From a virus, in UHGV virus genome UHGV-0081264: 14,630 nt of DNA. The stretch is one strand, 5' to 3'. Below, piece after piece: positions 2,802 to 13,463 of the stretch (positions are counted from its first letter, which is position 1; each line of letters begins with the position of its first letter). The notes beneath the pieces are model-generated. The model made no database searches and was not told where the DNA came from. It saw only the letters and a list, made by a program, of their open reading frames with translations. The position numbers and the translations under genes are program-made.

Positions 2802-4723
2802 TATTCATCTCCAGATAATGCCCGCGCGTAATCCGCCAGGGTCTTGTTATTGTTACGGCTGCCTTCTTCCTCCAGCAGGCTGGCCAGAAGTGAATCAAGA
2901 TTTAGCTGCCAGCGGGATATGCTTATACGCAGCGCCGCCAGTGCATAAACAAAGCAATCGAGCGCCTCATTTCGTCGTTTTTTGCTGTCCCAGACGATCT
3001 TTTTCTTTCCGCCTACCCATTTTTCCACCTGCTCTTCAGCTGTTAGTTGTTGGGCCTCTGTTAGATCGTAGATTTCTGGGTTATTCGGGAAATGAACCGC
3101 TCCCGCCAGCGGCTCGTCTCTTTGCGCCACCAGCGTGAAACGGTTATAAATCTGCTCTTTTGCGGTGTCTGTTCCTACCTCTGTGAGGTAAACACCATTC
3201 TTGTTACGCTTGCGTGGCATGTTCGCCACTGGCTTTCCATAAACCGACGCCCCCTTTATAGGGATCACACGAAACAGACCGTGTTTTTTTGAGCGGTTGT
3301 AGACGATGGTGGGATCAATGCCGCCAATATCCCAGCAAGTGCGGGATATAACCATTTCGAGACCGTTCTGGCGCTTATACGTCCTGTTGATCGCTTCATC
3401 AACTCGAGCGAGAGTCGACTCATCATCATGACGACCCATAATGATAATTTTGTCGATAAGCCAGCTTTCCTCTCCCGGCCCCCATCCCCAAACACGCATT
3501 TCGTAACGGTCAAGCTGGGAGTCAATACCCGCTGTCAGATATGCCACTCGCTCCGGCACAGACGCTTCAAAGTGCTCTTTTCGTTCCGCTAAAACTTCAG
3601 CATCGGGTCGTTCACCTATTTTCGGTTCCCACGTTTCGCCCAGGGTCGTGTTAACGAAAGTTTTTCGCTTACCCGTATCACCTTTTGTTTTTATCCAGTC
3701 CTTGACGATCTGCACCCAGGTTGTGAACGGGCTATATGCGGTCCAGATGTGGAATGTAACGCTGTCAGGAGGTTCAATTTCGGTACCGGATGAAGAAAAC
3801 CAGTTAAGGCCGTCTCGTGTCCAGATACCTGTTTCATCACAAATATACCTGGCCTCCAGAAATTCCAGCTCCTGTTGTTTAATCACACAGGCATTGTGTT
3901 CACAGAGGTAGTAAACGCTGGCAGGTTCTCCCGGAGACCATTTGAAGCCAAATGGTGTCTCTTTATCACCGAATTTCAGATACTGCTCTTCCCCACAGTG
4001 TGGGCATGGAACATGGAACCGAAGAAAATGTTCAGACTCCTTAGCAGCTCTTTCTATCTGGCACGTACCTTTGACTTTCGGTGTAGATCCGCGAATGGAT
4101 TTCGGCCATACAGAACCCTCAATACGCTTATCACCCAGAAAGGTGGGAGAACCTTCTTTCTCGATGTCATCATCGAAAGCGGCGAGCTCGTCGTAGCCAG
4201 CCACATCAACTGATTTTTCACGGTAGTTTTTTGCAGCCTTACCGCCCAGGCACCAGAAACCACGACCATTCGAGAAACGCTTCATGCTCAGCGTATTGTC
4301 CCGGTGTTTTTTACCGTACCAGGGAGCAAGCGCCAGCAACGTCGGAATATCACGAATGGTCGGTTCTACATGAGACTTCATGAAGTTTTCAGCATCACCG
4401 TCGGTTGGTAACCATATTAGGGAGTTACGCTGTTTATGTTGGATGAAATATGCGTAAACGCCGAGCAACATTTTTGAGTAGCCGACACGAGCCGATTTAA
4501 CGACATTCACCTCGCGAATATAGTCATTACCCATCGCATTCATAATTGCACGCTGAAATGGCAGTGTTTCCCAGCGCCCTTCCTGGTAGGCAGACTCTTT
4601 CGGGAGATAATAATTCTCATCTGCCCATTCAACTGCTGTTTGCGGTTGCGGCCGGTACAGCGAACGTAACCCCGCCCGCGCAGAGTGCTGCAGCCCCTTA
4701 ACCTGACTGTTCGATATATTCAC
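2801..4723 (-). CDS. A: Terminase large subunit, lambda gpA-like
   Basis: 640-aa ORF with GTG start (GTGAATATATCG..., as I recall for lambda A). MNISNSQV...[36 protein letters not shown]... is collinear with lambda gpA. 5' end overlaps the Nu1 3' end. Confidence 0.95.
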
Positions 4724-10888: not shown

Positions 10889-10914
10889 ATAAAAAAGCCC
10901 CGCTATTACGGGGC
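10889..10914 (-). terminator. Intrinsic terminator (minus strand) after the 213-aa ORF
   Basis: Minus-strand GCCCCG-uaauag-CGGGGC hairpin followed by UUUUUUAUUU, about 20 nt after the stop at 10935. Confidence 0.7.
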
Positions 10915-10934: not shown

Positions 10935-11576
10935 TTAAAAGTTTAAAGGAACCATAAAGCTACCAGGCTCTGCACCAGCTTCTTTATTTATTTCTTTACG
11001 GATTACCTCATTAATCTGAAAAGCCTCATTGTATACTTTTTCTAAGTTAATTGACGCCTTCATATTATAGTATGTTTTTTCCTCACAAACATATAACCTT
11101 ATCGGATATGGCCTAGGGTTGATTGCCTTCCAGTGGGAGATCACAAAATTATAAACTGCAATACCATGACCTTTCATCTTCCCTGCTGTAACATCAATGT
11201 TTAGCTGATCTAAATACTCATCGAAGTGTTGCAAGGTGTTTCTCACCCTCACGGAATTAATTTCCTTAATTTCAATATCTTTTATTTTTTCTTGAAGGTA
11301 ATTACTTCGCTCAATATGCAATCTGAATTGTTCAGGGGATTCTTCCCTAGTCTGATTTTTAGGAACTGCGATTAGTTTCTTGACGTTAGCCGCATCTGAA
11401 AGAATACTATTTATTAATATATGAATATTGTAATCAATTTTAAAGTAGTAACCAGCATCAGGAAGTGGTGTCTCATGAAAGAGCTCTTCACAGCGTGTTT
11501 TTATCGAATGAGTTAACAACCATAATTCGTGCAAATAAATAAAATTAAGTTTCATTTGCTCAAAGGTTTTTGACAT
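10935..11576 (-). CDS. Hypothetical protein, 213 aa, AT-rich accessory gene between Q and the holin
   Basis: ATG start with GGAG about 9 nt upstream and its own terminator downstream. Strongly AT-rich, with Lys/Ile/Asn/Tyr-rich composition. I do not recognise the protein. Confidence 0.6.
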   Translation of the reverse strand: MSKTFEQMKLNFIYLHELWLLTHSIKTRCEELFHETPLPDAGYYFKIDYNIHILINSILSDAANVKKLIAVPKNQTREESPEQFRLHIERSNYLQEKIKDIEIKEINSVRVRNTLQHFDEYLDQLNIDVTAGKMKGHGIAVYNFVISHWKAINPRPYPIRLYVCEEKTYYNMKASINLEKVYNEAFQINEVIRKEINKEAGAEPGSFMVPLNF

Positions 11577-11905
11577 AGCGAACTCTCCTTTTCAATAGTC
11601 CGCTTTTATAGCATTTACATAAGGGGCCTGTGAATTACTATTCTGTTGCTTACCACACTCTCGCAGTGGCCGCGCTCATGCCTTTGAGACCGTAGTCAGG
11701 GGTATCTCATGAATCCCTCACCTCTAACCGGAGAACGATTGGCGATCGTTCTGGAGTACCGGCACACCTCTTCTTTATTAACCCTAACCAGTGTGTGTTG
11801 CAGTTCGTACCTGCATCTGGCTCTCATGGAGACTCGGGACCGCATCACGACTGCGGATTTGCCTATCGGCTGCGGTCTATCCGTTTACTGGTGCATTTTC
11901 TTACC

Positions 11906-11945
11906 CTCCAGAAACGTAAAAGCCCCGGCAAACGCAAGGGCTACA
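11906..11945 (-). terminator. Terminator-like hairpin plus vestigial RBS and start; partial duplicate of the element at 12670..12703
   Basis: Minus-strand AGCCC-uugcguuugcc-GGGGCU followed by UUUACGUUUCUGGAGGG then ATGcaccagTAA. The 24/25-nt core CCTCCAGAAACG(T/C)AAAAGCCCCG is shared with 12665..12689. Confidence 0.4.
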
Positions 11946-12033
11946 AGAAGAACCAGCCCATGAGACTAGCGACATAACCCTATGCTTGATATTGTTAAAT
12001 CGCCAAATGTAACAATTAAATTCGGGAAAATTT

Positions 12034-12480
12034 ATGAGCAATTATTCGGATCTTCTTCAGGCAATAAAACTAAGAGTTTGCCAAAACAACAACATACCTA
12101 TTCCCTCTCTCACTGGCTCAGGCAGTTATCAGGCAAGGCAAGTATGGAACCGTATTGCGCAAATATTTACACTAGAATGCATACTAGCGGCACACAGAAA
12201 TGAATACGGCTCCGTTTTCGTTCCACTTGAAAATGAAAAAGCACTTCATCACATAATTTTTCTAAAAACAAAGTGGAATTTGGCAGAGATCAGAACTCTT
12301 TCTTTAAATGACTCACTCTTTATCATTGCAGAAATGTTCCGTTCAGACGCAATCCCACCAGATGCAAAGGTCTTTATGGAGTCGGTGCGCATACCTGAGC
12401 CTATTGCTTATCCACTAGAGGACTTTTCAGATGAGGACTGGGATCCCAAGGGAAACTCAGTTTTCCTTCAAAGCCATTAG
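12034..12480 (+). CDS. Hypothetical protein, 148 aa, plus strand
   Basis: ATG start with a weak GGGAA Shine-Dalgarno. Candidate sigma70 promoter upstream (TTGATA-N18-TAACAAT, about 11958–11990) and a strong plus-strand terminator about 35 nt downstream. AT-rich. Confidence 0.5.
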   Translation: MSNYSDLLQAIKLRVCQNNNIPIPSLTGSGSYQARQVWNRIAQIFTLECILAAHRNEYGSVFVPLENEKALHHIIFLKTKWNLAEIRTLSLNDSLFIIAEMFRSDAIPPDAKVFMESVRIPEPIAYPLEDFSDEDWDPKGNSVFLQSH

Positions 12481-12661
12481 CAGACATCTGCTCTAATTCT
12501 GCAGAAATTTCATTGAGCCGCTCTTCAAGAGCGGCCTTTTCTTTTCCCAAAATGTTGAAGCGTGCCAGGTACAGTCTTTGCTGCCCCAACCAGTCTTCAA
12601 GCTGTTCAGGTGTTAGCCCTGGATTATAAAAATGAGGCTGATGATTTTCCTGCTTGGGCAT
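12401..12661 (-). CDS. Hypothetical small protein, about 87 aa (MPKQENHQPHFYNPGLTPEQLEDWLG...)
   Basis: ATG at 12661 with GGAGG 4 nt upstream, directly after the tR'-like terminator. Its 3' end overlaps the plus-strand 148-aa gene by about 80 nt, and the plus-strand terminator hairpin lies inside it, so it may be spurious. Confidence 0.3.
   Translation of the reverse strand: MPKQENHQPHFYNPGLTPEQLEDWLGQQRLYLARFNILGKEKAALEERLNEISAELEQMSANGFEGKLSFPWDPSPHLKSPLVDKQ
12517..12546 (+). terminator. Intrinsic terminator (plus strand) for the 148-aa gene
   Basis: GCCGCTCTT-c-AAGAGCGGC perfect palindrome (12517..12535) followed by CTTTTCTTTTCC. Confidence 0.65.
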
Positions 12662-12669
12662 ACATCCTC

Positions 12670-12703
12670 CAGAAACGCAAAAGCCCCGCACGATGGCGAG
12701 GCT
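12670..12703 (-). terminator. Intrinsic terminator (minus strand), tR'-like, downstream of Q
   Basis: Minus-strand GCCUCGCC-aucgu-GCGGGGC stem (one U·G wobble) followed by UUUUGCGUUU. Same stem sequence as the terminator at 7898..7924. Confidence 0.55.
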
Positions 12704-12773
12704 CCTTAAAATCATTTACTGCCAGTGCATACAACAATGGCACAATATCAGATTTACATGAAATATATGCGTT
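12704..12773 (-). promoter_or_regulatory. Candidate late promoter region (pR'-like) between Q and the tR'-like terminator
   Basis: Positional inference only: AT-rich 70-nt gap directly after the Q stop and before a terminator. Possible -35/-10 hexamers (TTGTAT / TTTTAA) cannot be fixed by eye. Confidence 0.25.
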
Positions 12774-13463
12774 TTAATCCAGTTTTGCAATATTTTGGTG
12801 TGAATTTGTCGCCTTTTGTTGTGAACGTGATCGCGTTACTTGCAATAAAGCCTCGCTGTCGAGGCTCATGAAGATTCGCTTCATCTCCACCCAGCGGTCG
12901 GTAAACGTCTCTGACCAGTTCTTTGGTGTCACGCCCACCAATTCTGCCAGCGCCTGGTACTCGTATGTCTCACGCCCACCCAACCCCGCTTTCACATCCT
13001 GCGCCGCCAGCCAGATTAGCTTCTTCAGTCGCTCCATCGTTTTGCCTGCCACCCGCTTACCTTCCAGTTGCTGGCTGAACTCTGCCCACGCCCACTGGGT
13101 GATCGCCACCTGGTATTCGAAGCGGATATTCTCGCTGTAGTTCCACAGAAGCCATGCTTTCTGGTGGTCTTCAAGCGACAGCACCGCGCGGCGCCACGAT
13201 GCGGTCACAAACTCAACCGGCCCCACCAGCGCGATAGATGATCCCTTTGCGCGGGACTGGCTGCCGCTCATCGCCGGGCCGTCAGGGTTAACTTTCCGAC
13301 CAGTGACCGGGTCGGTGATTTTCTTCCTGCCCCGGCTGCGCGCCGTCGCGGTGAACTGCGCGTTTTCGGCGAAAGCTACCAGCTGCCCTTTCGTCGCCCC
13401 GCTGAGGTCTGCGGTCGCCACAATGAGCTGCTGACGTACGTATTCCAGTTGCTGACTGTTCAT
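12774..13463 (-). CDS. Putative late-gene antitermination protein Q (non-lambda type)
   Basis: 229-aa ORF, ATG start with GAAGGAAG Shine-Dalgarno. Sits between NinG and the lysis region where lambdoid phages carry Q. The sequence is unlike lambda Q, so the family assignment is by position and weak recollection. Confidence 0.5.
   Translation of the reverse strand: MNSQQLEYVRQQLIVATADLSGATKGQLVAFAENAQFTATARSRGRKKITDPVTGRKVNPDGPAMSGSQSRAKGSSIALVGPVEFVTASWRRAVLSLEDHQKAWLLWNYSENIRFEYQVAITQWAWAEFSQQLEGKRVAGKTMERLKKLIWLAAQDVKAGLGGRETYEYQALAELVGVTPKNWSETFTDRWVEMKRIFMSLDSEALLQVTRSRSQQKATNSHQNIAKLD

Follow-up and report, generated by a model that had tools for sequence, protein, structure and literature searches.

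The genome UHGV-0081264, a virus sequence of 14,630 nucleotides (nt) that was analysed over its whole length and is referred to below as the window, is a lambdoid prophage with its late genes on the minus strand; the holin, lysozyme and head genes lie further left. Between the gene of the antiterminator Q and the holin gene, it carries a small late gene for a protein of 86 amino acids (aa) and, convergent to it on the plus strand, a gene for a 148-aa protein of the ECs1072 family. This two-gene cassette is a lambdoid moron swapped at a conserved module boundary. A copy of a 23-nt direct repeat is found on either side of the cassette. Past the proximal copy, in the direction of late transcription, come a very short open reading frame (the mini-ORF) and a structured RNA element of about 230 nt. 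With a probability of roughly 0.7, the repeat is two copies of a conserved linker, composed of a terminator part and a Shine–Dalgarno (SD) sequence, which is used as a joint of the late operon, the window being a rare tandem of two modules, A and B.

According to this explanation, each of the alternative first late modules brings its linker at its 5' end. Module A would consist of the small late gene and the convergent ECs1072-family gene, and module B of the three-codon mini-ORF and the RNA element. In the window prophage, B would follow A, either one starting with a linker of its own, and A therefore looks bracketed. Homologous recombination at the linker could add, remove or exchange A. A direct repeat flanking cargo can thus arise from the stacking of two modules, each with its own copy. 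An earlier sequence-only reading of this DNA had proposed the insertion or exchange of a cargo cassette by recombination at the terminator sequence. The exchange boundary proved to be real, but the repeat, being the linker of each module, is neither a scar nor a duplicated target.

The linker at the joint of the late modules

The repeat, CCTCCAGAAACG(T/C)AAAAGCCCCG, is present at 11905–11927 and 12666–12688, the copies being identical at 22 of 23 positions. A pattern search allowing up to three mismatches returned exactly two sites, against 0.00 expected from 200 shuffles, and the homology does not extend past 23 nt. The sequence-only reading had therefore described a real repeat, while its limits (11906–11930 and 12665–12689) and its length of 24/25 nt were off by 1–2 nt. 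In the late-sense RNA, the linker reads CGGGGCUUUU(G/A)CGUUUCUGGAGG. On the minus (late) strand, each copy combines the 3' arm of a terminator, a U-tract and a GGAGG ribosome-binding site.

The distal copy (12666–12688, minus strand) lies at the end of the late leader. The Q gene at 12774–13463 (minus strand) encodes an antiterminator of 229 aa, which matches Pfam PF06323 (Phage_antiter_Q, E=1.9e-86) and PHROG 304 (E=2.3e-98). A pR'-like late promoter, TTGCAA-N17-TATATT, was called by the promoter scan at 12762–12790 (minus strand), just upstream of a short pR'–tR' leader RNA of 79 nt (12680–12758, minus strand) that ends in the tR' hairpin. The GC stem of this hairpin is formed by 12696–12702 and 12683–12689, and the U-tract occupies 12679–12682. 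Folding gave a GC core of 7 bp, extended to 11 pairs by A-U and G-U pairing with the U-tract, plus UUUU. A GC hairpin followed by UUUU, placed 79 nt downstream of the TTGCAA-N17-TATATT promoter, corresponds to a predicted intrinsic terminator. The distal linker supplies the 3' arm of tR', the U-tract and GCGUUUCUGGAGG, the SD sequence of the 86-aa gene. Its earlier description as a tR'-like terminator with a ribosome-binding site is thus borne out, as a strong hairpin arm is followed by GGAGG-N4-ATG of the 86-aa ORF. The same linker stands 5' of the small gene in ST64B, KPP5665-2, SKA5 and in Hafnia and Citrobacter prophages.

The leader resembles the small RNA (sRNA) IsrJ. It aligned with the full Rfam model RF01393 (positions 1–75) at 32.3 bits (E=9e-4), which is below the gathering score of 37 and amounts to a resemblance only. 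This likeness points to IsrJ-type sRNAs being late-leader transcripts, ended by termination, of Q modules of the PF06323 type.

The proximal copy (11905–11927, minus strand) comprises the 3' arm, the U-tract and the SD sequence of the mini-ORF, and is followed by GGAGG-N8-ATG CAC CAG TAA. The terminator scan placed two weak terminator-like hairpins downstream of the cassette at 11923–11970 (minus strand). The proximal linker forms the 3' arm of the second one, which is absent from the centroid structure of the fold. A single linker copy in an equal position relative to the RNA element was found in mEp237, RothC, E. coli BE2-5 and 27 loci of IMG/VR.

The joint is best seen in the near-isogenic pair SKA5 and BE2-5, where the 23-nt terminator and SD sequence is the exact swap joint of the first late module. 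Their sequences are near-identical from the 3' end of Q across pR' and tR' as far as CTGGAGG, after which they diverge immediately. SKA5 continues into the small gene, and BE2-5 into GTAAGAAA-ATGCACCAGTAA and the non-coding stretch. Homology with the window, at 99% identity or more, spans a 213-aa ORF and a non-coding stretch of ~260 nt in mEp237 as well as in about 11 E. coli chromosomes, and ends at 11926–11928, the outer edge of the proximal copy. The single copy of the 23-mer in mEp237 adjoins a different Q. In Klebsiella phage RothC, Q belongs to the family of the window Q (77% aa identity) and is followed by a single linker copy and a diverged non-coding stretch, the cassette being absent. 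From the breakpoints in SKA5/BE2-5, mEp237 and RothC, the 23-mer is therefore a conserved joint that links the Q module to two alternative first late modules.

The tandem arrangement is rare. Of 126 loci with the core of the RNA element, 27 have one linker at its 5' edge, and two copies were present only in the window and its identical-cassette relatives (L006, L009, L012). The 86-aa gene was found at none of 122 RNA-element loci; conversely, a second linker or the RNA element was found at none of the 80 other cassette loci in IMG/VR. In E. coli contigs with the identical cassette, the block of identity extends from ~11884 to at least 13050, with differing variants of the non-coding element to the left. 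A megablast search with 11500–12900 gave no record with at least 80% query cover in 5426 complete E. coli genomes and 50,697 phage records, and the exact cassette is found in draft or metagenome contigs only.

The repeats might also be regarded as products of a dedicated insertion, either a duplicated target site or the att-like sites that a mobile cassette would have, as the cassette is flanked by a 23-nt repeat matching at 22 of 23 positions and empty sites have one copy. This is very unlikely. The repeat is a functional terminator arm with an SD sequence that occurs as a single copy before both types of module in many phages, and typical target duplications are far shorter than 23 nt. Site-specific mobile cassettes have repeats at every copy and a recombinase; the second repeat is missing from all 80 of the other cassettes, and the survey of ORFs, Pfam matches and neighbourhoods showed neither a recombinase nor a transposase gene between the repeats or next to them.

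Several points weigh against the linker explanation. The comparison with an empty site proposed in the sequence-only reading was answered in part: single-copy relatives without the cassette exist (RothC, mEp237, BE2-5), but an isogenic empty site was not found, and the event may have been a gain or a loss, recent or old. For the best cassette-free relatives, Q identity does not exceed 85%; where Q directly borders the RNA element, it is 77% or less, or Q is of a different family. The junction at 11928–11985 has no homologue in any fetched locus; a search for its origin returned identical-cassette loci only, apart from a promoter block in Serratia. The crossover that joined A to B may thus have taken place elsewhere than at the linker. 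Finally, the putative promoter of the 148-aa gene fails the consensus scan.

The convergent gene pair of the cassette

The 148-aa ORF noted on the plus strand in the sequence-only reading is present at 12034–12480, antisense to the late operon and, as the family context would have it, in a prophage between Q and holin. A profile search assigned its product to NCBIfam NF033230, the ECs1072 family (163.3 bits against a curated cutoff of 70, E=3.5e-48, profile positions 1–142 of 142), and to PHROG 5286. Nearly all of 91 representative relatives have ~145–155 aa, without fused domains. The identical protein is encoded in 95 contigs of E. coli assemblies. Homologues with 47–59% identity were found in Salmonella, Klebsiella, Citrobacter, Hafnia, Enterobacter, Shimwellia and Xenorhabdus, and intact ORFs of the family (144–148 aa) in at least eight genera.

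In the 120 codons of this frame that do not overlap the small gene, the proportion of nonsynonymous differences (pN) was 0.26–0.38 and that of synonymous ones (pS) 0.75–0.90, the latter being saturated, which gives a pN/pS of ~0.3–0.5. The frame is thus, as judged from its conservation, a genuine gene under purifying selection. The sequence-only reading had made its proposal depend on coding conservation here, and pN lies well below pS. It could be supposed that the ORF arose antisense by chance and that only the features of the late strand are real, since the ORF shares DNA with a conserved gene of that strand and its promoter compares weakly with the consensus. This explanation is refuted by the NF033230 score (163 against 70 bits), the intact ORFs across genera and the pN/pS; the confident AlphaFold2 (AF2) model, all-helical with a pLDDT of 84, also speaks against it.

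The promoter-like region of the 148-aa gene is a conserved block at 11986–12021 (plus strand) with a palindrome formed by ATTGTTA (11991–11997) and TAACAAT (12010–12016). The promoter assigned earlier, TTGATA (11986–11991)-N18-TAACAAT (12010–12016), has its letters in place but did not pass a sigma-70 consensus scan. An alternative reading is TTGTTA-N18-TTAAAT at 11992–12021. The block is conserved across genera, and the palindrome becomes perfect over 11–13 bp, GATATTGT-N13-15-ACAATATC, in one IMG/VR variant and one prophage of Hafnia. This symmetry makes it operator-like. The region itself can be called only promoter-like, and the 148-aa gene may plausibly be expressed without the late programme.

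The gene is followed by a predicted intrinsic terminator at 12517–12545 (plus strand), located inside the KEKAALEERL-coding part of the 86-aa gene. This structure, GCCGCTCTT-CAA-GAGCGGC followed by CTTTTCTTTT, had been pointed out from the letters; it was called by the terminator scan and folds at -13.2 kcal/mol. The predicted hairpin and T-tract are kept in 8 of 9 cassettes examined. Due to G.U wobbles, the plus-sense RNA forms a more stable hairpin than the minus-sense RNA in 6 of 8 cassettes, and the T-tract is present in the plus sense only. This bias is read as selection for terminating the 148-aa mRNA. The GC content is ~0.40 over 11900–12400, compared with 0.49–0.52 in the RNA element and lysis genes and 0.59–0.65 in Q. 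The strand-specific terminator, low GC content and antisense placement of the 148-aa gene fit an autonomous cargo expressed from the prophage.

In the lysogen, pR' transcripts would stop at tR' as the IsrJ-like 79-nt RNA, and the AT-rich 148-aa gene would be transcribed from its own promoter towards tR', ending at 12545. Upon induction, Q-modified polymerase would read past tR', and the SD sequence of the linker would drive synthesis of the 86-aa protein. Transcription would then run antisense through the 148-aa gene, pass the weak second terminator and enter the mini-ORF with its RNA element, beyond which it would reach the 213-aa ORF and the genes for lysis.

Searches with the 148-aa protein found no Pfam family and no PDB sequence profile at E<=10. 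PADLOC gave no significant match (best GajB, E=0.035), and Foldseek against PDB and BFVD returned nothing under E=0.7. Alignment with domain IV of E. coli DnaA by hhalign had a probability of 0.05. A HEPN-like identity was rejected, the Foldseek E-values of 5–9 being insignificant and the Rx4-6H motif being absent from the family alignment. Because of the palindrome over the promoter of its gene, the best guess, held with low confidence, is that the protein may be a small autoregulated DNA-binding accessory (moron) protein.

The late-leader slot often hosts conversion genes such as stx and bor. A product acting against other phages, by superinfection exclusion or defence, would agree with the moron architecture of the 148-aa gene, antisense and AT-rich with its own terminator, and with a homologue in Shimwellia that stands beside a HicAB module on the same strand. 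Such a function is nevertheless unlikely: the best PADLOC match is the insignificant GajB, no enzymatic or membrane feature is predicted, and relatives of 38–46% identity that pass the NF033230 cutoff occur in ordinary chromosomal contexts.

The partner of the 148-aa gene is the first late gene, located at 12401–12661 (minus strand). Its product matches PHROG 3501 (E=2.5e-39, residues 4–81 on profile positions 3–80 of 85), other profile matches being to coiled coils only. AF2 predicts one long, coiled-coil-like helix (residues 18–61), and the homologues form 52 clusters. In module A generally, the small late gene encodes 85–86 aa. It had been described as an overlapping minus-strand ORF of 87 aa. 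The overlap is correct, 80 nt (12401–12480) with the genes convergent, but the product has 86 aa and the ORF is not incidental, being a conserved partner at 80 of 80 IMG/VR loci with a 148-aa homologue. Among deposited phages, all 8 full-length matches to the 148-aa protein carry the small gene, convergent and overlapping. The pair always stands between an antiterminator, which it follows directly, and the holin; the products of the preceding antiterminator genes belong to three Pfam families (PF06323, PF06530 and PF03589), and the hosts include Salmonella, Klebsiella, Hafnia, Enterobacter, Citrobacter and Serratia.

The two genes are tightly interleaved, with the terminator of one inside the KEKAALEERL codons of the other. 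Within the overlap, the palindrome TGGGATCCCA at 12440–12449 codes for Trp-Asp-Pro (W-D-P) in both proteins, and W-D-P is nearly invariant in both families; together with the terminator, this amounts to a dual-strand constraint.

This coupling could mean that the 86-aa and 148-aa genes are one two-component device, either a toxin/antidote-like pair or a switch, coupled through antisense, for gating late transcription or the timing of lysis. The convergent overlap would then act through mutual antisense RNA or through interference with leaky pR' read-through. The linkage in 80 of 80 phage contigs, the overlap with its W-D-P palindrome retained at 55–75% aa identity across genera, the complementarity of ~145 nt of both mRNAs (12401 to ~12545) and the location directly after tR' in every case are in line with such a device. 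However, in SKA5 and Salmonella phage 118970_sal3 the small gene is intact, next to what is left of a truncated 148-aa gene; it thus needs no partner, and the pairing is not obligate. Furthermore, genes of the ECs1072 family are solitary in Sakai Sp4 and at non-phage chromosomal sites. Known toxin–antitoxin (TA) families in Pfam, NCBIfam and PADLOC gave no match, nor did defence families, and physical overlap by itself explains co-inheritance. A device of this kind, including the mechanism proposed for it, thus appears rather unlikely.

The assignment of the cassette to the lambdoid morons is based on its presence or absence at one position (RothC, mEp237 and BE2-5 being without it), a computed terminator of its own and a distinct GC content. 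As for a promoter of its own, the conserved AT-rich TTGATA/TTGTTA block and the palindrome are seen, and the consensus scan is negative.

The structured RNA, the mini-ORF and neighbouring loci

The conserved structured RNA, late-sense, occupies 11653–11884 (minus strand) and is preceded by the mini-ORF ATG CAC CAG TAA (11885–11896, minus strand) with its SD sequence. The mini-ORF had been noticed behind the proximal repeat and taken for a vestige. It is present, but not vestigial: an SD-preceded ATG mini-ORF of 1–6 sense codons is kept in 82 of 106 unique anchored copies of the element and has exactly three codons in 65. The invariant 3' core of the element was found in at least 120 IMG/VR contigs, and blastn detected this core in 109 of 5426 complete E. 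coli genomes (~2%). Beneath nearly all of the E. coli matches listed, RefSeq has no annotated feature.

RNAalifold predicted a multi-helix fold from 32 diverse copies. Over 49 pairs, 93.1% of the cells were paired, compared with 30–37% when the partners were slid; cells with double changes numbered 129 against 13–49 in the slid controls, and the covariation score was 0.308, that of the controls being 0.086 or less. For four of five measures, the observed value was not reached in any of 500 shuffles; for pairs changed on both sides, 4 of 500 reached it. Rfam 15 gave no match to the ~230-nt element even at E<=10. At the gathering score, no Rfam family matched anywhere in the window, and no tRNA genes were found there. 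A limited literature search found no account of the cassette or the RNA element. The downstream partners of the element vary, and some copies end at their own terminator. A role as a tRNA leader was rejected, as a tRNA lies within 1.5 kb downstream in only 2 of 98 loci.

Covariation and the retained mini-ORF suggest that the element may be an undescribed class of phage RNA. A tentative extension is that the proximal repeat is the native 5' end of this class and that the slot after tR' is a regulatory hub, tuning Q-dependent late expression or the timing of lysis. There, the RNA, which alternates with the 86/148 cassette or, in the window, comes after it, would be more than passive cargo, possibly joined by the convergent 86/148 pair through antisense transcription and a DNA-binding ECs1072 protein. 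The RNA element could give a new handle on late-gene regulation after Q in temperate phages, including relatives of toxin-converting phages. The adjacent structured RNA with its conserved mini-ORF is the larger pay-off of this locus.

Between the RNA element and the holin, the window has the AT-rich 213-aa ORF (10935–11576, minus strand; GC content 0.30–0.37), which is identical to gp56 of mEp237, is also found in BE2-5 and is followed by a strong terminator in the terminator scan (10897–10914). No significant family was found for it in Pfam, PHROG, NCBIfam or PADLOC. It resembles a further moron, in this case a co-oriented one. The sRNA STnc100 was detected in related prophages of E. coli and Klebsiella, at 3264–3460 of L006 (78.8 bits) and 2684–2879 of L004 (108.1 bits). 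It lies there before the holin and after the cassette or RNA element, where the window has the 213-aa ORF. Late leaders thus appear, from these matches, to stack several structured RNAs.

In the Shimwellia blattae locus (L162, 1779–3300), HicA/HicB lie directly upstream of the ECs1072-family gene on the same strand. A GGCCACTGCGAAAGTGTGGC hairpin, resembling the 3' end of the RNA element, is located there upstream of the small gene, which is the reverse of the module order in the window, and an insertion sequence (IS) element interrupts the adjacent methylase gene.

Family members with 38–46% identity stand alone at non-phage chromosomal sites. Their neighbourhoods, including an OrtT toxin gene and an aldehyde dehydrogenase region, gave no functional clue. 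OrtT-type toxin genes were seen near such chromosomal ECs1072-family genes in Kosakonia, Enterobacter and Yokenella (L016, L017, L033 and L038). At ~3470–3800 of these four loci, a conserved small convergent ORF is located downstream of the ECs1072-family gene. Its motif, MSK[IT]VVVL.PGG..E.LTVDD...PIETY.CEGEEF.FAR, is unrelated to the 86-aa protein and matches no family.

Comparison with known systems

The namesake of the family, ECs1072 (ECs_5703), scores 105.7 bits against NF033230 and is 21% identical to the 148-aa protein. Both have a matching length and a single domain, and the namesake in Sakai Sp4 is likewise antisense, in an early phage operon. Unlike the gene of the window, which follows Q, ECs1072 is solitary and lies between cII-like and replication genes. 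The phage subfamily (at least 47% identical) is always paired with a PHROG 3501 gene, in contrast to ECs1072 itself. ECs1072 is listed in a microarray table of an uninduced Sakai culture (PMC2241611). With the cassette described here, a family without a function gains a testable context.

The region from Q to holin that contains the RNA element is also that of STnc100 (Rfam RF02076), an sRNA of prophage late leaders. STnc100 is absent from the window, and the element at 11653–11884 is a different RNA. The antQ-isrK-orf45-anrP-isrJ region of Gifsy-1 is a documented earlier case of cargo placed after a terminated sRNA next to Q and before a second sRNA or terminator (PMC4825925). Gifsy-1 and the window share Q, a short terminated leader sRNA, cargo reached by read-through and a second sRNA module, the leader of the window being IsrJ-like below threshold. 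They differ in that orf45-anrP is co-oriented, with translation controlled by sRNA, whereas the cargo of the window includes an antisense gene.

Morons, a concept derived from HK97 and HK022 comparisons, are autonomous units of promoter, gene and terminator between essential genes. The cassette resembles the lambdoid morons in being present or absent at one position, in its terminator and promoter-like region, in its lower GC content and in its placement in the slot between Q and lysis, as for cargo of the stx type. Unlike them, it is antisense to the host operon, with a 3' end and a terminator that share their DNA with the coding part of a conserved late gene. The exchangeable unit is therefore a two-gene block that carries the 3' arm of tR' and the SD sequence.

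According to the modular theory, lambdoid mosaics have conserved sequences at module boundaries, also termed linkers. The 23-mer is similar to these in being short, conserved and placed exactly at breakpoints between otherwise unrelated modules. It differs from generic boundary sequences in having an evident function of its own as terminator arm, U-tract and SD sequence. Its conservation follows from this function, and selection for recombination is not needed to explain it.

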